Translations under genes and position numbers: made by a program | NCBI GenBank assembly: GCA_964483535.1 | Contig: CAZABZ010000001.1 | Coordinates: 8,594-72,593 of the forward strand | Direction: 5' to 3' | DNA from: an uncultured Planctomycetales bacterium | GTDB taxonomy: Bacteria; Omnitrophota; Gorgyraeia; Zapsychrales; Fredricksoniimonadaceae | Length of the DNA: 64,000 nt | The notes under the pieces: generated by a model | Told to the model about the DNA's origin: nothing | Database searches by the model: none | Seen by the model: only the letters and a program-made list of their open reading frames with translations | In this document: positions 4,956 through 62,500 of the stretch, one piece after another | Position numbering within the stretch: position 1 is the stretch's first letter | How the letters are laid out: every line of letters starts with the position of its first letter

Positions 4956-5162
4956 TGTTTCCCCCTTTTTGGGTTGAAAATCTAAAAAAAATATAAAATA
5001 ACGAGTTTGAAAAATGCTTTCATTATAAGCATCTACTTAAAATATAACACATTTTTAATAAAAAGCAAGCTTAAAACTTGATAAATAAGCAATATTTATA
5101 TAATTAAAGAACAATTACCCTGAGAAATAAAATCCCCTATTTTTGCTACTATTTCTTACAAA
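4956..5162 (-). promoter_or_regulatory. AT-rich intergenic spacer, probable promoter/5' UTR of the 1295-aa secreted-protein gene
   Basis: 207-bp non-coding gap, very A/T-rich with runs of A, lying between the PilZ gene stop and the next gene start on the same strand. No -35/-10 pair could be assigned with confidence. Confidence 0.3.
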
Positions 5163-38500: not shown

Positions 38501-41500
38501 ATCCAGATTATTCGTCTGATATTCCAGGGCCTCTTTATCCGCGATGACTTTGTACTCTTTATTGATAATACCGGTTAATACCGCTTCGACCTTTTCTAAT
38601 GCCGTCGTATCATTGCGAGAAACCGTGGGCGACGTGGCAATCTTTTGCAATAGCTTTTCCAAATCACGTATGGCCGCTTCCAACGCTTTGGCTTGTTCAT
38701 CGCCGCGAACGGCTATCGGTACGATAATTGAACCCTCCTCAAAGTATCCTTGCAGCTTATCTAATAGATCCTTCGAAAACTTCTTGTCATGGGCTTGTTG
38801 CAGGTCCTCGAGCTGATACCGTATGTCTAAAAGACCAAGTGACTTGACTTTGTTTAAACCGGCCAAAATATCTTTATTCTGCTCTGCATCCCGGATTGCC
38901 AAATCGAGTTCAATCTTTTCAAATTTCCTAAAGTTCCCCTTTTCATTGCTATTTCCCTGCAAACGCTGCAATTCGCTTTTCACTAATAGAGTATCTATCG
39001 CTAATTGTATTGATTCTTTGACCTTCTGGTCCTCTTGATACCGGGCTAATTCTAATTGATACTCGTAGTAGGCGCTGAGTACGCCAAGGGCACGCTGTTG
39101 AGCGGCGAACGCTGTCTTCTGGTCATTAGGGTCATAACGAACAGTGATCGTTTGACCTTCGATTGCCTTTTGGACCACCTGCTGGGTAGCAAGCCAATCT
39201 GAAAGATGATCGCCGCCAACAACTTGTTGAACAATGCCTTTGAATTGCTCAGCAGGCACATTATTGTCTTCTCTTATCTGCAAAAGCTGTTGGGTGTGGT
39301 AAAGCGCGATTAGCTTCTGCATATCCGCGGAGACGCTCTGTGGACCTACCAACAAGACTGTTGAAGCAACCTGCGCCCTGTTAAACGGTACAAAGTCCCG
39401 TACTTCAATAGCGGCTACCTGCGACTGAATGCTCAGTATGGTCGCCATCACGCTTGTAGCGGCTATTTTCTTGATGCGTCCGGCAATAGGAGTAGCGGCT
39501 TTACTCGAGCGTTCTTTGCTCTGAAGGGCCGTGATTTTCTCCTGATCTTTTTTAATTTCTTCTTGGTCCTTTTTGATCTCTGCTAATCTATGTTCAATAT
39601 TTTGGGCCATTCCCTTCAAATTTGAGGCGCCAAAAATATGCTCAACTGCATTCAAATTGCTCTCTTCCTGCAGGGATACGTATGGATTTAATCCCAGCTC
39701 TTGCGCTCCCTCTTGTAACCCTTGCGCTGTCTTGCTGTTCTTCTCTTTTAGCAAATCGTCGCCGTTCAAATTTTTTCTAATAATTGTTTGAAGTCCTGCC
39801 TCAATCCGTTTTTGCTGATTAGCTTGACTGGCCCTGTACCAATCACCTATGGAAATCCCGCGGACGTCTTTAGACGCGACGAAATAAAACGCCTGCCCGT
39901 TCATCTGGCGCTTCACTAAAGCCGCTATGGTTTCAAGGCCATCCTGGTCCAAATCAACCGCCACGCGCTGAGGAATACTCAAAACAAACCTGTCTAATCT
40001 GGCGGCCTCTCCATTCTCCGTTGTCTTAATACCAATAGCCTTAGCCGCGGAATTTTCCGGTGTGGCTGCGCCTGAAAGATTCAGCATATAAGCCAAACCA
40101 AACTCCGGATGGTAAAGATAATTTTCGCCCTGTCTTGCCAAATGCGCTTTGACCTCATCCACGTTTTGAGCTATCGCGCGATTGGTCCGGTAGAAGGCCG
40201 CCGCTATTTGATCACGTATCAACAGGTCCTTGATTAGAGGGACTATGGACAATTTAGCGGAAAGCGTAAATTTGATATCTTCCGCCTTCCGTGCTGTTGC
40301 CTGGGCTAACTTTTCAATTAATGGTTCCAGCTTGGCCTGGAAGGCTTTTTGCTGGCTGACTCGATCTTCTATCGGTAAAATCAAACTGACCTGATGTTTA
40401 TTCTTTAATTCCACAGACGGCACTTCGCCTTCACGAACATCCGTAATTTCCAGTGCTCCCTGTGCCCCGGCGCTATTGGCTAATCGGGCGCCCAATTGCG
40501 CCTTGAGAATAGCTCCGGCAAGGCCTCGGTCATCCAGCTTTTGCTCCAACTCTGCCAAAGTCGACTGCCGTCCCACCTTGGCCACGCCTGCGCCGCCCGG
40601 CAGAAGCTCTAATTCACCGACAATGCGGGTCTGAGGCTCAATGGCGTCACGGAATTCCTCATAAGAAAGATGCTCGCGTCCCGTCGCGATTTGGGCGTCT
40701 TTAATAGCATCTCGCAACTGAGGATATCTTTTAATGAATCCTTGCGGATTTAAGCTAAACTCATCATCTAAATGTCTCAAATTCAATTCATTGACCGGCA
40801 ATCTTGGCTCTCCAAACAAATTATTGACCGTATTGTCAAGGGTGTTCTGAGGCATAACATGATTAAAGAATTGCCCCATAACACTCATCGCGGAAGGAGG
40901 AACGTCTGCGCCGTAAGCAGGTGACTCCGTGGCATTGATGACCGCATTGATGCCATGACCGACAACAGAATCTTTAAACGGAGAATCTTTCTCGACAAAT
41001 GATGCCCCTGCCGCGGTTAATGTAAAGATTTCCGCGGCAATAATCCACATATGCCAGACCCCGGCCCAAAATTCTGCACCTGTATCCGCCAATAAATTCC
41101 AAATGGATCCAGAAGCGAAAGGCTCTTTCCCAAGTGATTGCCGAATCAACCGCCAGGCAGAAACCGGCAATAATAATGGAGACACCAAAGTTAATCCAAA
41201 CGCCACGATGTCCATGGCCACAAAATAAAGGGCCCCCTTAACAGAAGCGCTTTTAATAGGAGTGCTTTGTTCTTCACGGACGGCTTTCTCCAATATCGTT
41301 CCCAGGGCCGGTCTGCCGTTGGTATCTAATCTTCCGGTCTTGATTAAATCTCTAATCAGAACTTTTATCTCATCTCGATCCTCAATAAATCGCTTATCAC
41401 GCAACAAATCATAAAGTGTATTGGCATAAAAACCAACGTAGCCCATTGCCGCGGCTTTTTGGGCGAGAACCGCATGCTTTCTCGTTAAACTGTCACTTGA

Positions 41501-44500
41501 AATACGACCGCTTAAACGGAAAATCCTGTTTAATTTTAAATTCATAAACAGGACCATAAACCCTAATCTAAGCAATTCACCCCAAGTGAAGGTCAAATGA
41601 ACAGTCCACAATTGGTCCTTAAGCCAATTAAGACCGAATACCGCGCTGTGGGCTTGGTCCGGGAAGAAGTAAATCAAAACAAAGGAACCAGCAATTCGAC
41701 CGATGATCGCCAAAGTCGCCCTGCCAAACAAGAATGTCGCTGTCCCAATACCAACTGGGAAGACCAATTGCAAGACACGGCAAACAATGACCCCTCTGTA
41801 CCAGACTGCATTGAGTTTTCCTTTTTGCTCTAATTCATCCTGGGCATCTTTTGCCTCTTTTTTGATGTTCTCCTCAACAGCCGGGGCTAATTTACCCTTA
41901 ATATAATCATCAACGAATTCACCAAAAGCAATCAATGTCCAGGAAGCCACAAAGAAGAATCCCCAAAATACCGAGGCTAAATACGGTGATAAAAATCCAA
42001 TAATCCCGCCTTTGATAGCAGTGCCTATCATGTACCCATAATTGATATACCCCAGACAAGCTCCCAAAATTGTCGCGCCGATAACAAATATTGTGAACAT
42101 CCTGTTGTTAATTAATGAATTTACGAAACCACTCTTCTGTTGTGACCGGTTTTTGGACAGATCGAATAATTTCGTAAACCAGAATGGTTTAACTTCCTTA
42201 AAGAACGCACGCGATACTCCCAATATCATTGCGCCACCACTCACACCAAGTTGCTTTGCCTTGATTGTAATAAGCGAGAAAATATCTCTCAATCCGCCAA
42301 AGAATCTTGTATTTTTGTCCTTATAAAGACGATAGATATCCTTTGCTAAAACTCCGGAAGCTATCAGGAACAAAACTGATGGCAACAAGACAGTAAGTTC
42401 CTTGTAATTCTTAAGGCCATTCTGGTAAAGCTGAACAAGCGGTGATGTGCTTCCGAGGAACAGGCTAAGGGCCTCAAAGAAAAGTGGAATGCTGAAGATA
42501 AGATGTGTGAAGCTCTTTACTGTTGTAAAAAGTTTCTGCCGTGTTTCCTTTATAGGAATGTACTGCAGATGTTTGTCTTTCTGTGCCTTCCATGTGTATA
42601 AAATGAATCCAACTGGAATAGCAACCATGAGCGCATGGATAATGGTGGCCTGCGAAGGAACGGCAAATTGGATGACTTGACTAATTAAGGTTGGTGATGT
42701 TGAAGCAAAGGACAGGGCTGGCATCCCCAGCAAGAGAGCAAAAACTGTTATAGGTCTGACAGCTAATCTCCAAGCCCCATGTCCCTGAATAAATGCTATA
42801 ACTGGCTTGATAGCAGAATTATGGAAGCCTTGAATTAAAGCTTGAATGCGGGTTGCTATAGAAGGAACACGAATTCCACCGTTCTTTTCTGCCTCGTTTT
42901 GGGCGAGCGAAACAACTGTGGCTGCGGCAGTGCTTGTCAGAACAAACACTTTTTGCGCCTTCGATTCATCGCTTCTTGTCGGAGTCGCGGACGCAGTCCT
43001 AGAACCTTGAAGAAATCTATTGTTATAAGCGTCTACGTCGATACCCAATCGTTGCGCAGTTTCCACACTTCTAGAACCTCGCACATCTTGGGTTCTTATA
43101 CCTTTTATGGTTTCTGCTGCCTTGGGTACACTTCCTACACCTTCTGCACCTCTTGCAGCTCCGCCATATAGGCTAGACACGCTATTTTCACTTCTACGGA
43201 TGCCCTTCCCTAATACTATCCGGAATGCACCCAGCACTTCTTTAACGTACCTTACGGTACGAGAACGGATCTTGCTTGCTTCTACTGTGCCTCTACCTAC
43301 TTCGCTTGTAACACCCGCGTTCACCACGAGGGTGGTATTGCCAACTGCATTGTTGCCAACTTCTGTGCTTCTAACTGCTATGTTGCTTGTACTGCCTACC
43401 TCTACTACCTTTACTTCGCTTACTTCTTGCTTCTTCGCGGACGGAGCTCGCGCTAAGCCGCTTCCTGCATTTTCATCAAAAACGGTACTTCTTGTTGCAA
43501 CTCTAGTACTGCCAACTACTTCACTATTTTCCTCTTTTCCTACCATTAATCTGTATGCTAACCTGAGGAAGGTTAGTACAGATTGAAAAATACCCGGAGA
43601 ATATAACCTTGGGCTAGTTCTTGCTACAAAATCCTCCATATTAGTACCAAAATCGCCTCTATTCCCATCGGATAAGCCCATGTTTCCAGGACTTGTCTCA
43701 TTCAAGAACGTACTCGGTGGCGCACCTCCAGGCCCGAAATTCCCTCCAGACCCGGGCGGAGGCTGATTAGGATTAGTCGGTAAATACGGTAACGGCGGTA
43801 CTTGTTGTGTCTCCTTAGACTTAGGCCAACTCTTATTTGGCATCTCTTCCTTAGGCGCTGGCGTTACCGTAGCTGCTGGCAATTGACTTCTGCCGTTGAT
43901 AAAGGACAAGAAGCGATCAGGATCCTGTATTAGTTTCTTATTTGTATATTCATCGATTTTAGCAAACAAACTTTTTGCATCGGCCCGTATATTTTGTCCC
44001 TCTTTATCAACAACTTGCAATCTCCATGCCTCCGGCATCCCCAAGAAATCAGAAGCTTCAAACTGATTATTACCGGAATTAAGCATCTGGCTTAATTTAT
44101 TTATGACTCCCCACTGTCCTTTAATCTTGTCCGCATTTTGATAGAGAGCACGCAGGTAATTCATTGCCGCTCCTCTGGTCACAAAGGTCTCACAGCGCAA
44201 GAAGAAGTCGACATCCAACGCTGTCTTATCAGGCTTAGACTCATAATTTTTAAGGAAAATCGCAATCATTTCCGGATTATTCATCAAATGCGCTAATTCA
44301 TCTAGAGTCAGGGTCTCAAATCTTCCTTTGGTTTCATTCCTGACAAATTGCAGCCTTTCCTGGGCATCCTTGGCATCCATATCAAGCCATATCCCGGCTA
44401 ATGAAAGATAGCTCAACAACGAATCCTCTGTTCTGCCTTCTTTGGCTTCTTGATTCCTTATTGCCTCCAAATCCTTGACTTGCAGAGCACCTTTAGCGGC

Positions 44501-47500
44501 ATACAGTTTGGTCGATTCAGCCAATTCTTTAACTAATTTCATCCGCGTATCAAATGCATTAAGGAAAGGTGTTTTGCCCAATACGCCCCAGAACAGCTGG
44601 ACAACCTTCGGCTTTTGCGATTGCTCCTGCTCAAATCGTAATAACGCATTGCGCTGCGTGATCATTCTTTTATACAAAGTATCCGCGCCATTTTTAGTGA
44701 GTTTGTCAGACAAATGTTTGTACACCGTATTATTATGATCAACTTTCAACGCATCGGCTATTCTAAGCGGCATCAAATCAGGCATCTGATCATTAGTCAA
44801 CTGAGTCTGAAGTGTTCTTAAATTCTTAAGGAAATCTTGGGGTTCTATTTCCGTATTTATGCTGCCGCCATGCTGGGTCCAGAAATCCACCATAGTAGCC
44901 CAACGTAAAACATCCGTTACATTATTCTCATTGGCCTCGAATAAACGATTGGTTACGTCAAAAGCCAACCGATTAATTTCTTGACGGTCTTCGCTTTCGG
45001 CAGGGGCGTTTTGAGTTAGAACGGCCAACTGTCGACGTAACTCAGCTGAAAGTTTGGCAACCGTCTCCATCTGGCTTAAGAAAATTAACCCGAGCTGGGT
45101 GACGGAGTGGTTGGTAAAATACAAATCATTGTTTAAGAATTGGTCCGCCAGCGATGGTCCTAATCTTTGCTGCAAAGTATCAGCCGTGATTGGGCCATTG
45201 CTGGAAAGGGCTTGGGCTGTGACATTGGCCGCATGAATGGCGTCTTGACCATATACAGGAGCTATGTTGGTTGGCAAAACAGCTTCAGCAAATTTATCAC
45301 GCAAAGTCTCAAAGACCTCTGTGAAATTAACTCTTATCTGTTGAATCTCCTGGGGGAATTCCAAACTCGGCAATTTGCTCTTGCCGTAAGGATTGATTTT
45401 AATCTTGGGCAACTCTTCTCGTTGAAGGTCATGGGCTATATTCAAATAGCGACGCACCTGGTCTTCCAATGCAGGGCTTATGCCGGATGAGAGTAGCCCT
45501 TCGAGCATACTGGTCGTGCCGTTCCAATTCGATTGTGACGCGGCAATAAACCATTCCGGACCACTGACGGTATAATTAAGGAGCATTTCGCGTTCATTGC
45601 TGAATCGTCCTCCCAAAACCTGGGTCAACATTAACTCCAATAATTTTTTATCTCCAGGGGATTTCTCAAACAGGGCCAGCCATTTTTGCAAGGGGCTGAC
45701 TTGGCGTAAATTGTGCAATACATTAAGCACCGCATGGCGTACAGTCCGGTCACGATGGGCCAAAGCATTATATTTGACAATCAAGCCTAACAGAATCTCC
45801 GGCTTAATCGTCTTTGAATCAACTCCTGACAAATTCTGTTGAGCATCCTTTACAAAATCGCGGATATCTTGATACATTTTCCCATCCGGCAGGCGTTTGC
45901 TTAATATATCGACTTGTTCCTGAAGATATCCTCGATAACGCTCAAGGTTTTCTCTATCGTTGTAGAGGTATTTATCTCCCTGCTCGCCATTACGATTATT
46001 ACGGTTTAATGCCTGGATCAATAAGGACTCTTGCCATAAATGGCCGGCAAGTACATGGTTGTCCAAAGCGCCATTGAAAGAGATACCAGTGGAGATAAAC
46101 GGTAAGCCCAATACTATCCAGTTGTTGGGGGCCGCGTTATTTTCCAAATATTCAATTATTTCATTTTGATTTTGATTACTGCCATCGAGAATAAGTACCC
46201 TGATTTGGTCAATCGCTTCTTCTTTTTTCAAGTCATCCACCGTCAAAACAGGAGAATCTCCCCAAAATACGCCGGTTGAGGCTGAGGCCAAAGCGGCTTT
46301 CAATTGATCCGCGAATTGGCGCTGAATATCCGCATACGGAGATTGCACAACCACCGCGCGTTTTCCCGCTTGTTCGACAACTTTATCGACTGCAGCTTTT
46401 AAAGATTCACCTAATGTATCCTTCAAATCAAATAATGTGAGTTTGTCCAATTCGAGTGTGCTGGGTGAAATCTCTTCAAATGGGCCCTGCACAAGACCGG
46501 ATTGCAATATGGCCTCCAAGCCTTGAGCTGTCGCGGTAAAACCAACGACCTCATCATGGCCCAAGACCAATTCCCACAAAGGATTTTCACTCTTGGTTTC
46601 ATTGGTGATTGGCATCTTATCAATGTCAATTTTGTTATCGGGATTACGTTCGTTATATTGCAGGACCTTGCCAAACAAATAGGCAATGTATGAAATATTC
46701 TTTTCGACTTCCACGATGCCTGTCGGACCTACAGGGAAGTATCCTAATTTTCCATTTTTATCCAGAGCTAAATTTAATCTAATCCCGTCGGGTTCAAGCA
46801 TGGACTGAATGGTCGCGGCAAAATGGTTTTTATCGCCTTCATCTGTTATTTTGTATGCGTCATAAACCCCCCAGGAAACCAAGAAATGCCGGCCATCGAC
46901 GGCAATGTTAGGATTGTAATAAACAATGGCCTCGCCGCTGGCCTCTGCTTGACGAAAGACGTCCAGACTGTCCGTGATCTTGTATTTTTGTCCTTTACTT
47001 AAATCCTTAAGCCAGTCGGCCACTTGATTGCGCACGTGGGCCAAATAGGGATCTTGAGTTATATCCGTCGTAGTGGAAACAACGTAATTGTATATCTCGG
47101 CCAGCTTCTGCATCTCATCGACAATGAGCGAGCCGTGTTTAAATGTCACCGCGGCTTTGGCGATTTCAGGTTCTTCAAAAATAATCGGCATGAACCCGCG
47201 GGCATTGTAGGACGAAACCTTGATCTTATTGGGATTTGTCAGCATATTGACAAACTCCTGAATGCGGGCCTCTTTGTCTATTGAAGAAGGACCGGTCGCG
47301 ATATATTCTTTTAATTGATTAGACAATTCATCAAGATTGACAAATTCAAAATCCGGCGGCAATTCCCGGCCCAAAGCGCTAACCATGTCTAGAGCAAATT
47401 CTGCGGATGTCTTTCCAAAAATATGTTTCCCCTGAACAACGCGTCTGACAATGGGTTCGCTGTCAAAAAGCATCAACACATTTTTATTGGATAAAGAACG

Positions 47501-50500
47501 TATGACAGCCTGGAACACTTCGGGCAGGGTCTTGCCCGAACTATTGCCGGCCACAATGCTTTTGCCCATGTCCGCGGCCCTGATCATCTTCTTCTGATCT
47601 CCCCATTTCTGAAGATCAACGTAAACTCCACTTTGCTGCAAATTTTCTAATTCCTGATCAAGGGAATTCAAAATGGTCTCAACATCCTGAGGATTGACCG
47701 CAGCGACCATGGCCCGATCCCTATACGCAAAATTCAAAACCTCATCCATGAGAGCCACTACAAGAATTTTCTCCTGTTCGGTTTTATCTGTAATGCCCTT
47801 ATTCAGGAAGAATGTTAAAATCAAACGAATGACATCCGGATCGGCTCCATATTCCCTCGAGGCCTTTGATATTCTATCTCCCCAGTTTGTGGAACCAATC
47901 GCCATTGATGTCAGTGTATATGTGCTTCTGTAGGCTTCGAGATTTCTACGGGCCTCATCCTCCGAAATTTGGGCTTCTTTTAATCCGCTGATTAACTCCC
48001 TTGCCTTCTCTATATTGTCCTTTACATCTCCTGTCATGGCCTTATCATTCTTCCCATTATTACCATCCTCCATGGCTAAATTCAAACTAACTGAAACGAC
48101 AGGAATATTAATATTGACGGGCGGTTGAATATTGGGAATGCCCTTAGGAGGCACATTTTGCATTTCATTAGAAACCTTCCCCCAAGCCTGTTGTAAAATA
48201 TTCTTTGCTTTTTGAGTATCGCCAAAGATAACTTTAGGAATTTCCGTGAGAACTTTCTTGCGATGAGGATCATTTAGCATCTCCTCAGGAATTTGACGAT
48301 ACACCTCAACAATCTGTGCGGCATCAAGTCCTTTGGTAAGCTTAACAAGCGCCGCTCGATCATCCACAAGAACGCCTTTTAGATCAGCCATAGAATAAAG
48401 ATCCGGGCCCATGCTCTGCAACATGACATTATCAGGCGCTAATAATAGGAAGGTGCGTGAAGCAACATACCATCTGAAAGCTTCTAGCCTGCTCAACTGT
48501 CCGGCATCTACTTTCTTCCCTTTATATTCCACCCATTGTATTTCGTTGGCTGACTGGGACATGTCCACACTAGCAAACGTCGAAGATCCGACATGATCAC
48601 CATTTGTCAGCGGGGCAATCTCTGCCTTATCATACTCAGCTAAAATTGGAATAAGTTGTGCGCTGTCAGCTAAAGCAACATAACGGATATCCAGTCCTTG
48701 TTTAGCCAAAGACATAAAAGCAGTGTAATTATTTTTTGCAAAATTTCTAAGCAACCTGACTATACGGAGGGTTCGGGCAGAGGAAATAGCAGCATTTATC
48801 CGCCCTTTCGGTGGTGCTGTTGACTGAGGATTCATGTATGTGTCATTGCGAGGAGCCGCAAGTGACGAAGCAATCTCTTTTTGCATCTCAGCAACAGGCA
48901 CAGATGCCAAAACGGCATTGCCCCCTGCGATCAAAGCTTTAATATCCATTAAGCCTTTAGCCTTCAACGATAGCTTTTTAGCCACAGCATAAGCCTTAAG
49001 TACGCTCAAAACAATTTTCAACGCATATTGAGGATTATTCTTAGTCTGTACGGCCACAGCCTTCTCCAAAATCCTACCCATTGCTGCTTTAGGCAACAAC
49101 ATCAAGAGCGGAACAAGTTTACCGTAAAAATCCTTGGCACTTAACATTGAGTCATCAGAATCGAATTCACTATCTTTGGCAGCAAGTACAAAGTCCTTAC
49201 CAGGAGGAGCATACATGGCCCAGTCCAGACGAGAGGCTATGTTACTAATTACATTCATGGCCGCATCCAGAGGATTTTTAAATTTCTTGTCTGCCTGATT
49301 GATTATCCATATTTCTGTGACGGTATCCGCATAATCAACAGGACTGGTATCGCTCACGACTTCAGCGCTGTCGATAACCGACGACCCCGGCTGAAATTTA
49401 GTCTGGTTAACTAATTGAGCCTGATTCGCTGAAGCAGATATTTGTTCATCAGCTAAAGCATTGCGCTCTGGTTGTACAGGAAGCCCGTCGGAACCAATAA
49501 CCAAGCCCTCTCCATAGGGACCAATAGGCACCCTTTGCGGTTCTGGCTCAATCTGCGGAGTAACTCGGTTAATGCCCGCCTGATTATTGAAAACTATTTG
49601 AGGTGGTAGGACAATTCCCCTTTGTGCTTCTCCATCATACGAGGCATACACGCGATCCCAAGCTTCCTGCAAATTATTACTAAATGTTTGCGATACATTT
49701 TTCCATTTGGATTGATATTTAGTATCAAGGAATTTTAAAATAGGGACCAGTTTCTTGGCTTTGTCCCCATATTTGCTCCTTACCGTTTGTTCTGTCTCGC
49801 CTTTTAAAAACCCATATTGTTCCCGCAAAGCATCTAATTTGGTAAGCCAACCCGGCCCTTCACGACGGATGGCTTCAACATCATCTTTATCATAACCATG
49901 ATTTTCCATCATGCTGATAAAGATGCCTTTCAAATCCGTGTCGTCTCCTGCCCGCCAGAATTTCGGATCTTCATAAGATAAGCTGTTAGCATCATGTAAA
50001 ACCTTATCAACTTCTTCCAAAGAGTGGATGCTCTCATGGTTAAATCCATAGTTGATGTTGTGTAGATTTTCCTGCTCTTCATTGTCCAGATCCACAAACT
50101 CTGCTTGGATAGCCCAGATGCCGTCTGTCTCAACCCATTGGTCACCTTGTTTGGATATGAGCCCAAGTGTTTGTAAATATTCTACAAATTGCTCTTCTTG
50201 CTTTGTCAACTGCCGCCCCTTCGCGGAGTTCAAAAATTCAACAATCCCATAATTGCCAGCCTGATTAGTCAAGTTAACCCCATTATATTTAAACCCGCCG
50301 GCTGCCTTAAGAGGCACGATATCTCCTTTTTTAAATTCTTCTCCCGCACCTTCACGGAACACCATGAAGCGAGACATGGCGTTTAGCCCCCAACCCCTGG
50401 TCGCGACGATGTTGAGTATCTTTGTGCCTTTACCTACCTCTTCCCCTACAAATGGCGACTGCCCCATTTGAAGGTTGAATATTAAATGGCCCAATGATTG

Positions 50501-53500
50501 TTCTAATCGAAATCTTTTATTTTCCCTATCTAATGACATTGGAGTCAAACGCTGTTGGGGGGCCAAAGTCAAAAGTTGTTGATTGTAATTCTCTGCCATA
50601 GCTATTTCATCAGCGGTCAACTTTTGACGTTTTTCTTTTTCAGCGGCAATAACACCTTCCACTTTAACGCGCTCATCATCTAATTTTGCCCAATCGCCCG
50701 AGGCCTCAGTAATATTTCCACTTTTGTCAATATCCACCTTGATGCCAGTCTTCCCATCTTCCAGATGCAAAATACCATCTTGAAAACTTTGTTTAAAATC
50801 AATGGCCGCCAGCACATGCGCCAGAGCGCGCAAATTTATTTCTGAACCGCCACCAATCTTGCCATTATATATATTATCCAAGACCTTCGTTAAGGTTGTA
50901 TCCGTGATATGGTGTTCCAGTATATGGGTCATCACATCCATCTCTGCTGCTCTGAGGGCCAAAAGATCTGTAGTCTTTGCCAGCGAAGCCCGGATCTTTG
51001 CTAAGATTTGATCTGCATCTGGTTTGTTATTCTCGCGATAGGGCAGTTTTTGCTGGAAGGTATACAGCTTGCGGCCATCGCCCGGATCATACACGGGAAT
51101 ATTGGCCACTAACAGATCTTCAAATCCTTTCATTCCCTTGGTTTCGTCATCTTTGACCACTTCAATGATCCCTTTTTCAAGTCCCTTGCCGGATTTGATC
51201 TGTTCATCGAGCACCCCTAAAGCCAATCGTGCGGCTGGCAAACCGGAGATAGCCATGTTGCGACTGCGTTCAAATACTTTTTGAGCCTCGTCTCTGAAAG
51301 CGACATACATTCTTTCATCGCCCAGCGCTAAGGCGCGTCTGGCTTTCTGCAATTTCCCCCAGCCTTCAATCATATGTGTAAAGATTTCACCCAAAGCGTA
51401 ATCATGATCGTAAATTCCGACGTTCAAATTCTTTGCATCATTATGTTCGATGATGGTGCGCGATGCCCCCAGCACCGTCTCTACTTCCACCAGACGGGCT
51501 ATGCGGTCAATGATGTGGCCCACTTCATGGTCAGGAACGCCATTTTCCAAACTTTCCGGGTCAAGATCAAGCAGGGCTAACAAAGCTTTAGTCCCCAAAG
51601 CCAATCTCAAATTATCCGCCAAACCGGCGCTGCCATGCTGTTCCGCATAAGGATCAAATGTCATTTCAAAATCATTGTCTTTGAGATATTGATTAATTCG
51701 TTCCTTAGCTTCTTTTATGTTTGCCTCAGTTGGATCTAATAAAAGCCTGGGCAATTGATGATCTAGGTTCTCCAATAAATAACCTTTCAGCCACATAAGC
51801 ATATGACTTAAGCGGCTGCTTTTTTGACTGTCTGTCTTGAACTTCAGATAAACCCTTTGGCCTGAGCGAAGAACTTCTTTCCATTGACTTTGGTCTTCTA
51901 AACGAATAGACTTTTTATTTTCATCATCCAAAGTAATAAACTCGACATCAATGTCGTAACGTTTGACCAAATCCGCCATATCCTCCAAAAGACCTTCATA
52001 AACTGCGGTCCTGTCATCATTGCCGGGTAAACGCACTAATTCACTGCGTTTTTCCAAAGATTCCTTAAAACGGTTCGTGGCCGCGATATGATCGTGCACG
52101 GTAGCAATATCTTCTGCATAAATGATCGCGTCCTTGGGTGGCTTTAAACCCCTTCCTCTTAAATCTTTCCGTAAATACGGATCACTGTTCAAATCAAAAA
52201 TATATTTATTGTCTTTAGTGGTCTTAATGATACGTCCTAATAAATACGCTCTATTTTTAAATGTTCCGTCCTTACCGATAATGCGTCCTGTGTCATGCTC
52301 TATTACATCCCCCTGCTCAATCCCTTCCTTGGCATACCCATTTGTTTCAACAATAACCTTTTTAACATTCCAGGTTCCGTTTTCTTTCATGCGGCGTTCA
52401 CTGGTGATGATACGTTCGGTACGGAACTTGGTTGGGTCAGCCTCATCCTTTGTTAAAATCGGTTCAACAAACCGCTTGATATCCACTTCAGTGGCCCCCT
52501 TGGGGATCGCCGCAAAATTATTGTTGACGAATATGCCTTGATCCGGTAATTCCAAAATTTCATCGCCCTTGTTCTCATCTAAGGTGCGGATCAACACGTC
52601 TCCGTTTTTAATCGTTACCCCCTTATATTTGATAGGAGTCGGGTTGGTGACAATGATCTTTCTGATATTAACCTGCCCATTCTTATCGACGCTGACAATC
52701 GAACGGCCATAAATCGTCTCCCAGCCACGCATGCCCCCTAAGAAAACCTGTCGCTTGGTGTTGATGCTGTATTCTTGAATTTGTTTCTCTATGTCTTTTT
52801 CTTTCTTAAGCGCCTCCTGATCAATACGGATCAATTGATTTTCAACCAGCAGTGCTCTTAGGGCCCCGTCTGATGATGTTAAGCGAGAAATCAAATCTTT
52901 CTCTCCGGTGGAAAATTCTTCAATACTTAAACGTTCCTGGGCATTCTCCCCGCTGGCTTCAACCATTTGTCCGTTATTTGCGATACTGAAATCCCCTTTT
53001 TTACCGCCGATAGCCTGTAGTAAAATATTTTGATTGAAACGGTTATCTTTCTCTAATCTCATCCTATGATTAATCTTGTCATAAGCATATTGAACAGGCG
53101 CCAAATATTGTTCCCCTGTTTGGGCATCAATGATTTGCAAAATAGCATCTGAAACATATTCACCTTTATCTTTTCGTACATTAAACTGCACCAAACGCTT
53201 TTCAGCAACAGGCGCGAATGACATGAATGCCCGTTCATGTTCAGCTAAAGGATCGTCTGTTTCCTCGAATATTTTTAAAAGTTCTTGATCGGCCTCAGAT
53301 TTATACCAATCCTCCTGGGAAACGACCTTTTTAGTATTGGGGTTATAGACCTGATTTTCATTTGCGTCCATAGTCGGAGCATTGGCATAATTACCAAATT
53401 TTAACCGCTGACCGACGTTAAATATCTCCCCTTCCTTATAACGCATGGTACTAACAGACTTGTCAACCAGTATCCGCTGATAGCCGCCTGTGTCGCGAGG

Positions 53501-56500
53501 AAGAATATATTCATTGGGCCCCTTGGCAGCAGGCTTCTGCGTGCTGACTTGTGGTGTTCCCGTGGATTGACTTTTTTCTTCAGCCATAACAGCTTCTCCT
53601 AAATGTCGCTGCCTGATCATTCTTACGACTTCAGATATCAACTCTGGATTGGCACGATAATCGGTTTGCATGGTCTGGTGCGCCCCGTTTTGCGCCATAT
53701 CTAAAGAAATGCCCTGGGCGATGGCCATCATGAATTTCTTAAGATCCTGGCGCACTTGATCTTTTTGTTCTTTGGTCAAAGTGGGATCATTTAATTTTTG
53801 GTTATAACCTCTCAAAGTATCCTTGGTGTCTGACTTTAGATTAGGATCTTCTTCTATCATAAGCACTTGCTTATAGCGACCCTTGGTACGCTGGGAATTA
53901 TCATAATCTTCCGTATTTTTTAGATACGAATTTTGACGGCCCATGGCCTGCATAATACCCGATAAAGAACGCGAAGAAAGGTCAATTTGAAAAGCAGTAA
54001 GAACATCCGCTATTTTATTCCTTACTTTAATGCGTCCTACCGTATCATCGATGTCTTCCTTCATCGATGTAAGAATGACTCGAGCTTTCATTTTCCGACC
54101 AATTTCTGCAGGCGAAAGACCTTGATTCTCCGGTCTGCCGCTTAATTTATTAAATTCTGCTTCTACATCATCCTTGAGTTCCCCTTCAATAAATCCCTTA
54201 GCTTGATCATGCCTTTTTATGTACACTTCCCCGTCAATGCCTAACTCAGCCAATGCTTTTATTAATTCTTTTTTGACGGCTTTTTCACCATAGCGTTCAA
54301 GCAAAGGTTGCAACATAATAGTGTTTAAATACAATAATCTCTCATTGCTAGTCCTGCCCACCCCATCTTCGCCAAACTGTTCTTGAAGTTCTCTGACGAT
54401 TCTTTGCTTTAATGTAAGTTTACCTTCCACATCAAACTCGTATTTTCTATCTGTGACAGGAACCTCTGCTTTAGGCTGCCAGAATTCAAACCCTGCGATT
54501 TCCATGAGATCCCTGGCTTCTCCAAAAGAACCGCTAAATCCCATGACCAAGGCACCTTCACTTTGGAAACGTTTGACCACCTGAATACCTGTAGCGCGAT
54601 TACTCGGATGTTCTGCGGTATGCTGGAACCAATCTTCCATTCCAATATCCACTGCCTTTTTCTCAACTTCTTTCCCTCCCTCCATGACCTTGACCCCATT
54701 CTTCAAGTGTGAGACAATGACCCTCGAGTACATGTTCAAACCACTTTCATCTGAGAATATGCGATTAAGCTCCTCCTCCCCTACGTTTAGCATGTTGCGA
54801 GGATTGAGGGTGAATCCTTTGCGACGACTGAGCGTAAATCCACCATCTTTATTAATTATAATTTCCAACAAACCCATATTAAGAGCATAAACAAAATCTG
54901 CTTCTGCTCGTAGGGCCTTCCCTAACTCTTCACCTGTATAAACTATTTTCCCGTCTTTCCTAACGTTGTTGTCTTTATCAATCTCAAAACCTTTTTCCTT
55001 ACCCATTGACAATATTTTCTCATATAAAACTTTTTGAACCTCTTCAATAAATTCATGTGCATGGAAGGATTGACCAAATCCTTCGCTTTTATTGATCACG
55101 TTTCTAACATTATTCTTAACAGCCTCATCCACCACCTGAGTTAAAACATCAACATGAAAAGACAGCCTGGCCATTTCCCTTTTATACTCATCACTGTCCT
55201 CACCAAGTCTGGTGACAATTTCTTTGCCATATTCCGCATGCTTCCCGAATATCAAGGTTGGTATGGTTGCTTGAAGGTGGGCTTCATCTATAAATACAAT
55301 CGCGTTCTTCGTGCTAGTTAATTTACCTTTAATAGCGTTTATTTGAAGATTTAAATCCGCTGTTTGAGACCCCCGATGCGATATGACCGTTATCTTGCCT
55401 TCTTCATAAGGGATCTTACCCTTAATATCTTCACTATCGACGACTAAATAGTGTTCGGGATTATCCTTAAATGTATTGATGGCTTGGTCCGTCGTAATAT
55501 AGATGATCTGCCGGCCTTTATCCGTTTTGACGACTGTTTCCATAATACTTCTGGCTAAGGTTGACTTCCCTTCACCTGTGCCCAACGCTATAGCAATCAA
55601 ACGGCTCCCTTCTATCGTATTAGGATTTTCAATGGCTTCAAGAATTCCACGAATCATAGACATCTGCCCCTTTTTATAGGCAAATACTTCCCCACGAGGG
55701 ATCTGTTTTGCGAGGGCGCTAAACACTTCGAAAAACTGCGTGTCCCTATCTTGGGCTGTTCCCCAGCCTTCCCGCTGTCGTATTTCCCCTAATTTACCCT
55801 TAAATATCTCCTTGGCTATGGCATCCGCTGAAGCTTGCAGGTCTAACATCTGGGCCTTTTTCACCCGCCACTGTTTTTCTACTTCTTTCAGATCAGTGAT
55901 GAGATTATCTACCTCCCCTCCTAATCCCGGTTGCTGTCCCCATTTTTGCTTGATTATGCTTTGGGCTTGATCAAATTTCTTTGCTTTTATCAAAGAAGAT
56001 ATTTGAACCAAATCACTTATAACATCTTTCGCTGTAATAAAATCAGCTTCCTTTTCTCTTTGGTAGGCTAATGCTAACGTCTCTTCCCCTACTTCCTGCC
56101 CCTTAAGCCCATACTGCCCTAACAATAATTTCTGCAATGTCCCCTTAATTATGTCCAATTCTAATCGTTGAGATTTCAGACGGGAACCGATAATAGCAGT
56201 AACGGGGGAATTTATCCCTTGAGCATCTTCTCTTGGGGTGTTCCAATAAAGGGCGTTCGCAAACTCCCGTTCCGGGGTCCAAAAATCAGATGAAAAATAC
56301 TTGGTTTGAGAAGGGAATTGTGTGTCACGGGATGCAGGGTGGATGACGTTTGTACTAGCGCCGACTTCTTCAACCGCAACTTCTTTTGTTTTAGTGTTTT
56401 CTGCGGAAGTTTCCGGCGGAGCCTTGGATGGTGGCTGGGTCCCTTCAATTGCCTCGCGTTGTCCTTTCCTGCCGTTAAGATATTCCGCGATATCATGCGC

Positions 56501-59500
56501 GTCTGCGCTGAACTCCTCTGCTCCCGGCAAGAGAACGCCTTGTTCTAAAAGTGCGCGTGTTACCTTGCTAATTCCTTCCAGTCGACTAATTCCTTCCGGA
56601 AGGATCTGTTTAAGTAAATTTTGCTGACGTTTAACACGCGCCTCGGTTAACTCATGCAGAGTGGCTTGAGCGGCGCCTTCTTTGGTAACAATCAAATACT
56701 CACGATTGCCTCGGGCATCTCGAAAAACAACAAAGCCTCCGTCAGCGCCGTCTAAATAAGAAGAATTATCCTTAACGATATATCGCCTGAACGTCGTAGT
56801 TGTTCCATCAGAATTTTGAATAACTCGTTGTAATCTTCCTTCGCTAGGGGATCCTATATATAAAGGCTTAGCAGTTCCTGTTCGAGCTGCGTTCTGTAGG
56901 CGCTCAAGCCAAGCTTGTTTTTCTTGTTCTGTTACAATTTTACGTCCATCTGCTGCGCCGGCATCCTCCACAGTCCGGACTTTAAAATTGTCGTCAATGA
57001 AATCATCCACTTCTTTGCCCTTCTTCCCCAGAATATCAGCTATATCTTTCAAATATTCCAGCGCCTTCGTTTGATCACCAGATGTTTTGTCAATCTTCCC
57101 TTCAGCCCTGTTTTCAAAAAATCTCGCTTCTGGATTTAATTGGAATATTTTTTCAAAAGCTAAACGAGCTTCTTCTCTGTTGCCAGCTTCCATAAAAGCA
57201 TGTCCCAAATCATCATATAACTGTGACACGGCAACTTTCTTCCCATAATCTTTCCCGGCCAAGTCTTCAGCTTCTTGCGCCAATGTCTTGGCACTGTTTA
57301 AATCGCCAGGATCTTTAGAGAGCGCGGCTTTTCTTATTGCCATAAGTGCTGTGTCATTTCCCCTACGGAATTTATTATGGGAATACTCATTGGCCTTTGC
57401 AAATGCCTCTCTGGCAATGAGTGTATATCCATTCTTATTGAACTCTTCAACGAATACGTCATGTGCCAGATTAGACGCAATATCACGCAATGCCTTGCCT
57501 TGATCTTTTTTGCCTTGCTGACTTGCCACTTCCATCAATTGCTCTGCAATTTTTAAAGACGTGCCCTTGTTTGCTCCGCTCCCTTCTCTAATACTTAGTA
57601 AATTCCACCCACTCTCCAATTTGGAATCCCCCGGCGCATTATCAAACGCCACCTCCGCAAACAAAGTTGCAAAATTACGGCCTTCCGGAATACTTTTCCC
57701 TAACAACCCTCGGGAAACCGCCATCAAATCTTCTATCAGCGATTGATGCTGACTCGCGCCCTGCTGCTCTTTGGCTTCAGAAACCAATTTTTCCATTGCT
57801 GTTCTTGCGGCCTCAATATTACTTCCGCCATTCTTTGATAGCTCTAACGTTTGATCAAGTATCGCTTGTCTTTGAAATAAAATTCTTGCATTAAATTTCC
57901 CCGAGGCCGAAGCCTTTTCATTTAAATCGCCAGCTCCCTTCAAATCACCTACCGAAAATAGAGCTCTAACAGCACTATCTAAAGCTTTACGGTCCCCTAC
58001 CTCTACTGATTTAGCTCCTATTTCGTTAAAAATCTCTATCGCTTCTTCACTGTGTCCTGCCCTCTGCAAACTCTCCCCAACAGCCAAATGATCTAAAAGA
58101 ATCCCCGCCTGAGCTGATTGGTCACCCTTCTGACCTGCAAGCTCAAACGCTTTTTTAAATGACGCCACTGCATCATCTGTTTTGCCCTGCGCCCGTTGAG
58201 CTACAGCAAGAGAATAATACTTTTCATGGCTCTGAGAATCAGATTCAACAGCTTTAGAATAATACGCTTCAGCTGCCGCAAATTGTGCTTTCCCCTCCGC
58301 TTCTTTGCCTATGCTAACCAACCGTTGCCCTTCTTGAATAGAATATTCTCCTTTGCTTAATACATTAGACGGCTTGGCACCTAAAATCAGTCCTACCCAA
58401 CTGCCAATGCTTCTTTCGCTAAAGCCGCCGGAGTTGGGGCCAAAACCTGTAGAAAGATTTTCACGCGTAACAGTAATAGAACCGTCCTTATTAATTACTG
58501 GATTTCCCGCCCGCATTGTAGAAGCCCAATCAATTGCTGAGTCTATTCCTGTTACAACCGCGGCCACTTTAGCTAACCCTAACGGCTCAGCCAAACCGCT
58601 TTTTTGTATAGTATCCCTTAAGCTAATCCTCCATTCGCTAGCAGGGCCACTGGACTTACTCATTAATGTCGTCGCTGCAAGCATCGGGTTTAATGAAACA
58701 CCGCTATTAGGTGCTGTTACAGCGGCATTCCACAAAATTCCCTTTGCCTCAGGTGAGAGACTCCAAGAATCTCCTTGAAATAATTGTACAAAAGTAGTGT
58801 TCTCTTTGCCAAATGCCGAACCTTCCTGAGTCAAATTTAACAATGTCCCATGAGGCAATTGCCCAGTTTCTAAACCAACTATGATTGATTTGTAAACACC
58901 TGTATAAAGAGGGAATTGTGTGCCAATCGGTATCCACTTCAATCCGCCCCATGCGCCATAGGCCCCGAATCGTTCAGCCCCGTTTATAGATAGCCTATCC
59001 AGTAAATTTTCCATCGTTCTAATAGGTTGTCCTGAGGCAGTCTCTGATCCCGTTGTCTCTAATCCAAATTTCTTACCAACATTTTTTGATATCTCCCCTG
59101 AATCTTTAACGGCTAGTCCTGCCATCACTGACCAAAATGCGCCACGGAAAGCTGATGCCCCTATTTCACCACTTAAATTTTCATCCCCAAGCGCCATCCC
59201 TCCATAGCCATTATTTAAACTTACATCACCTAGATGCCAACCAAATGTGTGTTCCAGCGACCCCACTGCAAAGTCTTTACTGACATTTACTACAGCTCCG
59301 GCACCCGCCAACGAAGCATATCCTTTAATCCCATTATTCACGAAATACTTAGCTTGCCCACCCGCGAGAAAACGCGCGCCCAAAGCAAATGTTGTAATAT
59401 CAATAGCATCTTTCGGTGAGATATAATTCCCTGAAGCCAAACCATATCCTGCTCTTACGCCAACAGCAAGGGCTGGCCAAGTAAAATAACTCAAATTAGA

Positions 59501-62500
59501 CGTCGGCGAAAGCCATCGTGTAAGGCTTGTCGACACTGCACCACTTGTTAATGAAGTGGCTGATGAATAAGCGCCCATTCCTAATCCAAAAAGAGCAGGC
59601 TTCCAGGCACTGTTGAGCCCTGCAGACAACATTTCTCCAAATTCTGCTTTTGGATTTTGCCATTGATTACTAATAATGCCCCAAGTGGCACCCCAACTGC
59701 CTAATTGTACGCCATAATTTAAAGAATTAACTGCTCCGACTACCCCCTTAGTTCCAGACGAGGCTTTTTGTAAGATTTCCAATGCCTCTTTAGAAACTCC
59801 CCCTGTAACGTCTTTCATAGAGGCCACTGTTTCTTGGGAAGCTTCTTGCGTAATTCTTTCTGAAGATCCTTCTGCAGTTGCTTTGGCAGAAGCCAACGCA
59901 TCTTGAACGGCTCCTTTAGTTACTGTATTTGCCAATGCCCCTACTCCAATTCTTCCAGTATTCACCAATATTAAAGCTGTGGCTAATTCCACATTCTGAG
60001 AAAATGTGAGAGGGCTCCCTTGATATATAGGAACGGCATTAGCCAGTGCCAATCCGGTGCCGACAACGGTTAAATTGCTGATGGCAAAATTCTTTACTCG
60101 ACTTGTTGTTAATGCCACAAATTCGCCATTGCCTCCTCTAATTGTTAAAGGGCTAAGAACGGTATTCGCAAGTCTTCCCGCCGCTGATTGCTCTATAGCA
60201 TTCCCCCAAATATTACTAATAGAACCTGTAACTGCCTTAAAAGCGGCTCCAGCTGCAAATACTTTCAAATCTTGTTCTGGTGTCAAAAGTTCATGATTCC
60301 TAACTAAAGAAAAAGCATTTGAAACCCCTACCCAGCTTAATCCAGAACCAACGATTGGTCGCAAAAGCGCCCCTCCCCATATTCCACCTGCGCCCACAAC
60401 TAACGGAACTGAAGCTGCCTTCGTAAAACCTGAAGAAAAATTATCTAATGAATACCCATTAGTATACATACTCCTCAAACCCTCTGCGGTACCTGCTGAT
60501 AATGCCAAAGTTCCCAACCCAAACTTAGCTGCGTTCTCTCCTGCCAAACCACCCAAGCTCGTCCATCCAAGCCTAGCTGCTAACGTATCCCCTGTAGCAG
60601 TACCTAAACTACCTAAGACACGCGTCACCGGCACACTTAATTTTGATGCTGCAACATCCAACCCTAACAATCCCCCTGTAACTTTAAATAAAGATGTTGC
60701 TAAAGAAGCGGCCTCTCCGGTTGCTGAAAAAGCCATCAAGGTATCAACCTCTACTGGATTCTCTTCCACTATTTTGTTAATTTTAGATGCAACAACTTGG
60801 GTCACACCATCTCTTCCCAATGCATTATCCCTTACGCTTTCAGATATTGGCTGATGTAAATAGTATGTGCTGTTACTCCACATGTTGTATTCTCCCTCAG
60901 GACGATCGATATAGCCCCCTCCCATATTGTCAATCTCATTGGAAAGGTGCGCTATATTTGCACCCGCCCAATTCGCGAAACCGCTTATCGCATACAACTC
61001 TTTACTACCCGTCAACCATGATTTATCTTTCGTTTCAAAAGATGCTCTGGGAATAGCACCCCAAGCTTCATAAGCCTTGCCTGCTGATGCAAAATATCCA
61101 TTAATATTTTCTTGGTCTGTCCCTATTCCAGCTTTTGCGCGCTGTAAATATCTATTCGCATCATCCAAGAAATTCTGAACTGTCTCTTCCTTTCCTGTTC
61201 CCTTAGCGCCATATTTCCCTTCCATCAGAGCATCTTGTAGTCCCGCCATCGTATACAAAGCAGACTCTTTAGACAAAGATACCGCCCCATTATTCCAAAC
61301 CCTCTCAGCTAATTCGGGTGTACCATTTTTACCAAAATTCACACTTCCTTGCTCCGGCGCCAATTGATATACTGATTCTGAAAGAAGCTGGGGAGCGTTA
61401 GACCCCTCTGTATTGCCAAATTCCCGGTTCCAGGTGAACGCTGTAACCCCCAAGGAATCAAGTCCTTTTATTGTGACAGCTGTTAAATCCCCATGCGCGC
61501 CAGCGTTAAAAGTCGCATGATTAAAAGAATCAATTATCAACTTTTGATCGCCGCTTCCCCAAATGGTCCCGTCATCTTCTATCGCACGAGCTTGAAATAT
61601 TCTTCCCTCAACAGACTTCGTGTTATCTTGTTTCTTAGTCTGAGTATTTTCTTGAGGTTTAGTACTGTCTGAAGCAAATATCGGCAACATCACATTTTTG
61701 CCATCAAAACTCACCACAGGATTTCCTTGGTCGTTTATTTTCGATACCACGGGAATAAAAGTCTTCCCATCTCCTGACAGCCCTTTAACATTAAAATTCC
61801 AATCGATCTTGCCTCCTATGCCTGTCTGGGCACTAATCACATCGCCGGCATTCATTGACAACAGCACTTGTTTATTATTTAGATATCTTGCTTGAACTGT
61901 ATCGCCCTTTAAGAGAGCTGCTGTAAGGGCCGGTGATGTCGCGGTAACCCACGCATTATTTACCAGGGCCTTAGTCGCAACTGCAGATCCAATCTCTTTA
62001 CCTTGCACTGCTTGTCCGCTGTCATCAAAATGTACTGTGTCTTGGCCCTTGCCCGGAGCAAATGAGCTGATGAGTGAAGTTATTGTTGTCCCCTCCGCAG
62101 TCTGTTTTAATCCCCTTGCATAAGCAACTGCTTGAATCTCCGGGTGCGCTAGAAAACCCTTCAAATCGACGTCCCTCCAATCCCCCTGTCCACTAAAAGA
62201 GAAACTCGCGGGATTATAAGAAGTAACATCGACTTTTTGAACCCCTGTCCCATTAACAATTCCCTGTTTTTCTCCATCCACATAAATAACTCTTCTCGAT
62301 CCCGAACTTCCGAGGAAATCCAAACTAATATCATTCCCTAAATTAGAAACTAATCCCAGGCGTCCGAGGAAATCCGAAATAGGTCCCTCACCTGAATTAG
62401 GAGCTGTCCCCCGACCTCCGAGAAAATACAAAGGAGATTCCTTCTGCGCTGTTATCTTCCCTTCCGATGCCTGCCCGCCTACCAATGGCATATTAGTTCC

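Follow-up and report, generated by a model that had tools for sequence, protein, structure and literature searches.

Most giant proteins of the Omnitrophota have been reported to carry divergent SecA DEAD and SecA preprotein-binding domains. These SecA-like domains occur without the scaffold or wing domains and form a long-branched clade apart from housekeeping SecA, and self-export of the giants was proposed (West-Roberts et al. 2023, bioRxiv 10.1101/2023.11.21.568195). A 2026 preprint on 916 long Omnitrophota proteins lists a SecA_DEAD architecture cluster of 20 members. There are few mechanistic handles on how proteins of 20,000–85,000 residues are made, folded, inserted, and processed, and an ATP motor within the chain is one of them.

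SecA itself has the layout NBD1-PPXD-NBD1-NBD2, and the PPXD is reportedly inserted between motifs II and III (Hunt et al. 2002; Papanikolau et al. 2007). In SF2 helicases, motif III usually lies 25–30 residues beyond motif II. Accessory domains also occur in other SF2 families (XPD/DinG, RIG-I/MDA5, Snf2, and UvrB) but are not known to be inserted between motifs II and III there; XPD/DinG proteins have one insertion site between motifs Ia and II and another beyond motif III.

A 64,000-nucleotide stretch of DNA (the window) was analyzed. It encodes a protein of more than 10,000 aa that has many transmembrane (TM)-like segments, a probable Omnitrophota origin, and an internal ATPase motor. It shares these features with the Omnitrophota giants of the "Archaeovorin" and dockerin types, together with Omnitrophota relatives, the typical set of TPR, radical SAM, and PPDK_N domains, and a motor that has no helical scaffold or wing. 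The window motor differs from the published ones in two respects. Pfam SecA models detect the published domains, whereas in the window domain and its seven relatives only ResIII is seen, and the motor is separated from the first TM cluster downstream of it by about 3,650 residues instead of adjoining one. It is a divergent newcomer among the SecA-like giant-protein motors already described. The preliminary description of this DNA had held that a SecA-type motor in such a protein was not a known architecture. That was wrong, and the claimed novelty falls because divergent SecA-like domains had already been reported in most Omnitrophota giants (bioRxiv 10.1101/2023.11.21.568195).

The giant open reading frame

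Nearly the whole window is filled by one open reading frame (ORF) on the minus strand. Its main parts are as follows (aa numbers are those of the giant protein).

5549..63991, minus strand: giant ORF, at least 19,480 aa
aa 1895–2290: TPR repeats
48914..56974, minus strand: conserved collinear core, aa about 2340–5026 (~2,700 aa), common to fragments of other giant proteins
53630..55774, minus strand: SF2 ATPase module, aa 2740–3454 (hmmsearch envelope of the family HMM, 875 bits, with the query itself in the model)
aa about 13604–13969: B12-binding and radical SAM domains
other domains of the giant protein: NAGPA, PPDK_N, RelA_SpoT, and a weak AAA_16 match with a P-loop

The ORF runs for 19,480 codons without interruption and does not close before the window ends: there is no stop codon in the 9 nt that separate its first ATG from the edge, so the true N-terminus of the protein may lie outside the window. 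Any type II/IV secretion-like gene cluster upstream of the giant gene, a feature considered for the Omnitrophota giants, would likewise lie beyond this edge. An artefactual origin of the ORF was considered and rejected; 58 kb without a stop at 44% GC and the existence of collinear relatives rule out chance.

A simple hydropathy scan identified ~34 hydrophobic TM-like segments in the protein, all of them from aa 7076 on. There was none in aa 1–7000, where the maximum 19-residue Kyte-Doolittle mean was 1.6, and the first TM cluster begins >3,600 residues downstream of the ATPase module. The motor is thus placed in a long soluble N-terminal region, and for this reason the module is probably, and most simply, cytoplasmic with access to ATP, in a chain whose N-terminus may lie outside the window. 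The module is present in a single copy and forms one module of the collinear core, which also contains two conserved HExxH motifs downstream of it.

The ATPase module and its family

The module is composed of two RecA-like lobes, the first of which is split by a large insert. All parts are on the minus strand.

55274..55687, minus strand: RecA1 lobe, first part, aa 2769–2906 (Pfam ResIII match and motif alignment)
55652–55678, minus strand: Q-like motif YKKGQ, in RecA1 first part
55559–55582, minus strand: Walker A GTGEGKST, in RecA1 first part
55481–55507, minus strand: motif Ia IIYITTDQA, in RecA1 first part
55277–55303, minus strand: motif II AIVFIDEAH, in RecA1 first part, core at aa 2902–2905
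54593..55273, minus strand: insert between motifs II and III, aa 2907–3133 (~230 aa)
55244–55267, minus strand: opening strand of the insert, TIPTLIFG, with conserved T-x-P-x-L-x-x-G
54719–54766, minus strand: family signature of the insert, N-R-[IV]-F-S-D-x-S-G-[LF]-N-x-[YF]-S-R
54458..54592, minus strand: RecA1 lobe, second part, aa 3134–3178, containing the return strand RATGIQVV
54515–54550, minus strand: motif III LVMGFSGSFGEA, in RecA1 second part, at aa 3152–3154
54476–54490, minus strand: FEFWQ, in RecA1 second part
53837..54457, minus strand: RecA2 lobe, aa 3179–3385
54047–54082, minus strand: motif V RVILTSMKEDID, in RecA2
53933–53980, minus strand: motif VI LSSRSLSGIMQAMGRQ, in RecA2
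53837–53875, minus strand: strand after motif VI, YKQVLMIEEDPNL, in RecA2

Walker A, Walker B (DExH/D), and motifs III, V, and VI occur in this order across the two lobes, as in SF2 ATPases. The sole significant Pfam family is ResIII (PF04851; 26.8 bits, cut-off 22.5 bits, E = 5.5e-6). The match begins at the Q-like motif, takes in Walker A, and ends at DEAH; it corresponds to profile positions 5–135 of 164 and is confined to the N-terminal lobe. In the family as a whole, ResIII is found at E ≤ 1 in just two of eight members. The expected beta-alpha-beta lobes are seen in AF2 models of the full module (pLDDT 57) and of NBD1 with the insert (pLDDT 65, pTM 0.60); both are of low to medium confidence and were built from an input alignment of eight sequences.

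We searched for relatives of the domain in public sequence collections. With phmmer, 1.84 billion representative proteins were searched exhaustively, and just seven relatives were returned (E 1e-25 to 8e-10, 26%–46% identity). Most of these look like pieces of other very long proteins, the two longest measuring 4,901 and 4,593 aa. A first scan of GTDB gave no relatives; another yielded one further relative, L001, and two source genomes, both Candidatus Omnitrophota MAGs. The other hit of that scan, L002, is identical to the phmmer relative P0006, and L001 contains P0001. No relatives were found in metagenome contigs (scanned twice) or viral contigs, and word-indexed homology searches with the domain or family alignment gave no matches. 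Sequence and profile searches of the PDB produced weak P-loop matches only, as did NCBIfam, PADLOC, and PHROGs (TrbB, mad8, and terminase). The family is very small and was found in very long proteins only, and where the source of a relative is named (two cases) it is Omnitrophota.

The family alignment shows conservation of motifs I, II, III, V, and VI. The consensus is Y-x-E-G-Q for the Q-like motif, x-G-K-[ST] for Walker A, [VI]-D-E-[AVI]-[HQA] for motif II, [ST]-[AG]-[ST] for motif III, T-S-[ML]-x-E-G-[VI] for motif V, and S-x-R-S-x5-Q-x-M-G-R followed by F, L, V, or Q for motif VI. Some relatives have degraded motifs, including P0004 (DEAA, with no recognizable motif V or VI) and L001 (DEIQ). 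L001 also carries a second SF2 domain, which matches Pfam DEAD and has the same layout of motif II, insert, and motif III. The retention of catalytic motifs at 24%–46% identity argues for purifying selection on activity. Judged from its sequence, the window domain is a real, conserved SF2 ATPase and not a chance pattern, and the module is probably an active DExH-type enzyme with two RecA lobes.

The gap between motifs II and III is ~245 residues and is conserved across the family. A large domain is thus located within NBD1 between these two motifs, the position of the insertion in SecA. Its predicted fold is helical with three beta-hairpins, parts of which are of low confidence in the AF2 model. 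In the model of NBD1 with the insert, one strand exits after motif II and one returns just before the motif III strand. The insert ends with the conserved family signature, then a hairpin, and then the return strand ahead of the motif III strand.

Comparison with SecA and other SF2 proteins

Similarity to SecA was assessed with sequences, profiles, and predicted structures. At E ≤ 10, the window domain had no match to SecA_DEAD (PF07517), SecA_PP_bind, or SecA_SW in Pfam or to the SecA models of NCBIfam. No SecA family was detected in Pfam at E ≤ 1 for the eight members (window domain and seven phmmer relatives), and no SecA model matched any part of the 19,480-aa protein (E ≤ 0.01). A Pfam scan of the insert did not find the PPXD (PF01043), and Pfam gave no match in the giant protein for the helical scaffold (HSD, including the two-helix finger), the wing (HWD, PF07516), or the C-terminal SecA domains. 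What follows RecA2 in the AF2 model is low-confidence helices only.

A large protein search with E. coli SecA recovered only enterobacterial SecA of ≥90% identity. This set was useless as a profile and was replaced by 15 diverse SecA/SecA2 N-terminal regions (37%–100% identical to E. coli SecA) obtained by tblastn against a plasmid collection. HMMs for the whole region, NBD1, PPXD to motif III, and NBD2 scored the family at −2.5 to +5.2 bits, within the range of shuffled controls (n = 900), whose top scores were 4.9–10.2 bits depending on the HMM. Alignment of the family to the 15-sequence profile with hhalign gave a probability of 5% (P = 0.008) over the Walker A to DEAH stretch only. Sub-profiles of the insert, motif III, and RecA2 gave P values of 0.14–0.48, and hhalign against the single E. 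coli SecA sequence had no match. Under permissive settings (mact 0.05), the alignment is collinear with SecA at motifs I and II, the PPXD end "DG..V.IVD..TGR..GRRWSDG", and motifs III, V, and VI, a suggestive agreement, though one that carries no statistical weight. A divergent SecA-like plasmid protein from a Rickettsia endosymbiont (pRiCimp001) was tried as a bridge and rejected (10 bits in three collinear pieces, not significant).

In the preliminary description, several strings were read as hallmark SecA motifs. All of them (TGEGKST, TTDQAINTFKD, FIDEAH, IPTLIFG, GFSGSFGEA, FEF, and GRQNSYLKNTED) are present in the order given in the minus-strand translation of 53732–55684, which corresponds to residues 2770–3420 of the giant ORF. 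The SecA reading of these strings did not hold. TGEGK and GRQ are peculiar to the window sequence and are not conserved across the family, the best BLASTP match to E. coli SecA has E = 2.9, and the HMM scores are those of shuffled sequence. Neither the SecA-type motif VI (G-R-x-G-R-Q-G-D-P-G) nor the SecA-type Walker A (M-x-T-G-E-G-K-T) exists as a family consensus. The SecA domains that the description expected from profile searches were missing at the thresholds given above, and the expected SecA-specific motif VI is absent from the family.

Fold comparisons ranked SecA first. SecA or SecA2 was the best match in all three fold searches, by a margin of just 0.4–0.5 Z over Hef, Hjm, HsdR, MDA5, and DinG. 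With Foldseek against the PDB, C. difficile SecA2 came first (E = 7e-7), and the runners-up (MDA5, DinG, XPD, and other SecA entries) were within one to two orders of magnitude of it. Full-length SecA (2fsf_A) aligned 182 residues of the model of NBD1 with the insert, compared with 175 for 3bxz_B, a PPXD-less SecA construct described as isolated DEAD motor domains; the insert is partly of low confidence and the PPXD is mobile. Since full-length SecA aligns barely more residues than the isolated motor, the insert is not matched to the PPXD, which the preliminary description had expected a structure model to reveal. Together, the position of the insert between motifs II and III and the SecA-first ranking, with its tiny margins, favour a SecA-like layout for the modelled domain.

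The likenesses to SecA and SecA2 (PDB 3bxz, 2fsf, and 6sxh) are the two-lobe SF2 core, the large insert between motifs II and III, and the T-x-P-x-L-x-x-G strand after motif II, which resembles R-T-P-L-I-I-S-G of SecA. The differences are DEAH in place of DEVD, Q-x-M-G-R in place of G-R-x-G-R-Q-G-D-P-G in motif VI, the absence of significant sequence or profile similarity, and an insert of ~230 aa that is not superposed on the PPXD. By our own count the SecA insert is ~160 aa.

Among other SF2 proteins, the ResIII DExH enzymes (PF04851; Hef 1wp9, HsdR 2w00, and Hjm 2zj2) share with the module the only significant Pfam match, from the Q-like motif to DEAH. They differ in lacking its ~245-residue gap between motifs II and III, and the nuclease or DNA-binding partner domains of such enzymes were not found here. 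XPD/DinG proteins are likewise SF2 motors with large insertions in the first lobe, but their fold matches have lower Z (11.0–12.7) and the window motor has no Fe-S cysteines.

SecA-specific similarity was borne out by none of the statistical tests, and the domain is not shown to belong to SecA. The domain is demonstrable only as an SF2 ATPase with a SecA-like layout. The proposal of a SecA motor within a giant membrane protein is thus retained in part: there is an SF2 ATPase in a membrane-associated protein of ~19,500 aa, with an insert between motifs II and III and SecA-first fold matches, and its identification as SecA is not retained. At least in the window protein, it is topology and not demonstrable homology that supports calling giant-protein motors "SecA-like".

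What the motor may act on

The reading we prefer, with a probability of about 0.4, is that of a polypeptide-moving SF2 motor that uses the insert as a clamp and is the counterpart of the "divergent SecA-like" domains of other giants. From the conserved motifs I, II, III, V, and VI, ATP would be bound and hydrolyzed at the cleft between the lobes, opening and closing them. This movement would shift the insert domain, which could in this way clamp or ratchet a linear polymer. While the ATPase and its topology are observed, we infer the polymer, and a polypeptide is favoured over nucleic acid because of the topology, the lead of SecA in every fold search, and what has been published on other giants. 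The motor would then be a functional counterpart of the domains reported in other Omnitrophota giants. Several observations count against a polypeptide substrate. There is no SecA-specific signal in sequence or profile, the insert does not superpose on the PPXD, no scaffold, wing, or C-terminal SecA domains were detected, and the models are of low to medium confidence. In the fold searches SecA is hardly ahead of nucleic-acid helicases, and translocases of nucleic acid are the more usual bearers of a DEAH box, a Q-like motif, and a ResIII match. With >3,600 residues between the motor and the nearest TM cluster, nothing ties it to a membrane channel.

A DExH helicase or translocase on DNA or RNA, of the ResIII, Hef, HsdR, or Ski2 kind, is nearly as likely, if still doubtful: ResIII is the only significant family match, the DEAH box and the Q-like Y-x-x-G-Q fit the class, and the fold scores are tied. 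The match of the second SF2 domain of L001 to Pfam DEAD also agrees with it. Such a motor would act on, for example, prey or foreign nucleic acid or the organism's own RNA, and the insert would serve as an accessory domain that binds nucleic acid or regulates the motor. Against this, the space between motifs II and III is not known as a usual insertion site in nucleic-acid SF2 helicases; XPD/DinG, RIG-I, Snf2, and UvrB have theirs at other sites. The neighbouring sequence yielded no nucleic-acid-binding domain, and SecA was first in all three fold searches. The domain is also mildly acidic (pI 5.1–6.4), which was set against a nucleic-acid substrate; most SecA motor sequences compared are similar in this respect, and pI is uninformative.

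An ATP-dependent conformational switch, or an assembly or remodelling NTPase that does not translocate processively, is unlikely. It might control, for instance, whether the adjacent conserved modules, the two downstream HExxH motifs among them, are active or proteolytically processed. The module always lies within the ~2,700-aa collinear core that holds these motifs, and motif VI keeps a single GR arginine and one arginine in S-x-R-S, all of which would suit a switch. The full SF2 motif set is conserved, however, including motifs III and V, which couple hydrolysis to substrate movement, and direct evidence of a regulatory partner is lacking.

Descent from SecA or SecA2 as a true paralogue that docks on SecYEG and threads parts of the giant protein through the Sec channel is less probable again. 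It would account for the position of the insert, the SecA/SecA2 entries at the top of three fold searches, and the motif-by-motif collinearity of the permissive hhalign alignment, and SecA_DEAD and SecA_PP_bind matches are reported in other giants. It is opposed by the failure of all statistical tests, by the lack of a SecA-type motif VI and of a detectable scaffold with two-helix finger, wing, or C-terminal domains, and by the unmatched PPXD. Large-scale export of the giant chain is also doubtful, because most of its enzymatic domains (radical SAM, PPDK, and RelA/SpoT) need cytoplasmic substrates. An inactive relic that serves as a structural domain and does not hydrolyze ATP is very improbable, given that the window sequence and most relatives retain GK[ST], DE, motif III, and Q-x-x-G-R at 24%–46% identity, even though P0004 (DEAA, no recognizable V or VI) and L001 (DEIQ) are degraded.

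A bolder reading is likewise improbable. It would make the family a previously unrecognized, Omnitrophota-restricted SF2 lineage, either diverged from SecA past recognition or independently arrived at SecA topology. With the conserved downstream core and its two HExxH peptidase-like motifs it would form an in-cis machine that threads and processes polypeptide, in a protein whose size puts it beyond the usual routes of chaperoning and export.

The general idea of SecA-like motors in giant proteins has already been published. The window adds that such motors can be too divergent for SecA HMMs, and as a result published surveys would miss them or label them ResIII. Two minor points are new here: SecA HMMs do not pick up this family, whose members would receive either a ResIII label or no annotation, and L001 has a second SF2 domain in which an insert again separates motifs II and III.

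Conserved core around the ATPase module

The superfamily 2 (SF2) ATPase module of the giant protein lies within a core of ~2,700 aa (aa 2340–5026; window 48914–56974, minus strand) that is common to other giant-protein fragments, with which it is collinear at 23%–28% identity. One relative recovered by the phmmer protein search, P0003, alone covers aa 3060–5026 of the core. The ATPase is the only domain that is annotated in this region. Two HExxH motifs were identified in the core downstream of the ATPase:

Window 51515–51529, minus strand: HExxH motif 1, VPDHEVGHIIDRIA, at aa 4155
Window 50024–50038, minus strand: HExxH motif 2, HESIH, at aa 4652

Both are kept in P0003 and in a second phmmer relative, P0006, and neither has a Pfam match. 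These sites may represent zincin-like peptidase modules.

Remainder of the giant protein and adjacent genes

Within the N-terminal region, conservation is highest in a block at aa 1242–1885 (window 58337–60268, minus strand). Identity to the relative from Omnitrophota MAG REEB252 (L001) is 48% over 708 aligned positions in this block, compared to 24%–30% elsewhere. A Pfam domain search of the block returned no domain. Further domains of the giant protein were assigned using Pfam, most of them below the gathering cut-offs, with PPDK_N as the exception:

Window 22085–23182, minus strand: B12-binding and radical SAM
Window 19775–20257, minus strand: NAGPA (phosphodiester glycosidase)
Window 17696–18013, minus strand: PPDK_N
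Window 14801–15157, minus strand: AAA_16, a weak match with a GSGSGKT P-loop
Window 7667–7930, minus strand: RelA_SpoT

Charge is distributed asymmetrically along the length of the giant protein (window 5549–63991, minus strand). The first 6,000 aa, which lack transmembrane segments, are acidic (pI 5.2–6.1 per 1,000-aa block), and most blocks in the transmembrane-rich C-terminal two-thirds are basic (pI 8.4–9.7). The gene is followed immediately downstream by an ORF on the same strand that has no Pfam match, and beyond this ORF by part of mutL on the opposite strand:

Window 1068–4955, minus strand: ORF of 1,295 aa
Window 25–1053, plus strand: MutL, C-terminal part

Relatives of the ATPase module and SecA-like regions on plasmids

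The phmmer relative P0002 has 4,901 aa, is encoded on a JGI metagenome contig (L018), and carries the ATPase close to its C-terminus. The next gene on this contig starts 128 nt after P0002, codes for more than 5,461 aa, and includes a GGDEF domain. On this contig (L018:4071–28776), the "giant" is thus divided between very long genes that follow one another. Another phmmer relative, P0004 (871 aa; ENA sample ERZ1426817), seems to be the ATPase module as a protein in its own right, because the length of the gene call (46–2661 on a 2,670-bp contig) fits 871 codons plus a stop. DEAA replaces DEAH in P0004, motifs V and VI are not recognizable, and the N-terminus has a signal-peptide-like sequence (MKLKNIFLLGIAYFTLNSARA|Q). 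An exported ATPase would be odd.

The reading frame of L001 contains a second SF2 domain (18071–19400, plus strand; aa ~6024–6450), which scores 25.1 bits with Pfam DEAD, below the cut-off of 26. It has GAGKSS as Walker A and LYDDE, with APDLNIGG after it, as motif II; motif III (LLSGS) comes after ~250 aa, giving the same layout of motif II, insert, and motif III as the ATPase module. The giant protein of the window yielded no counterpart of this second domain.

The tblastn search with SecA identified highly divergent SecA-like regions, with 24%–26% identity to Escherichia coli SecA, in two plasmid-collection records. One is within a large "hypothetical protein" gene of the Rickettsia endosymbiont plasmid pRiCimp001 (L015; CP084574.1), and the other is unannotated on an Embleya sp. 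plasmid (L016). Non-canonical SecA-like motors are therefore not restricted to Omnitrophota.
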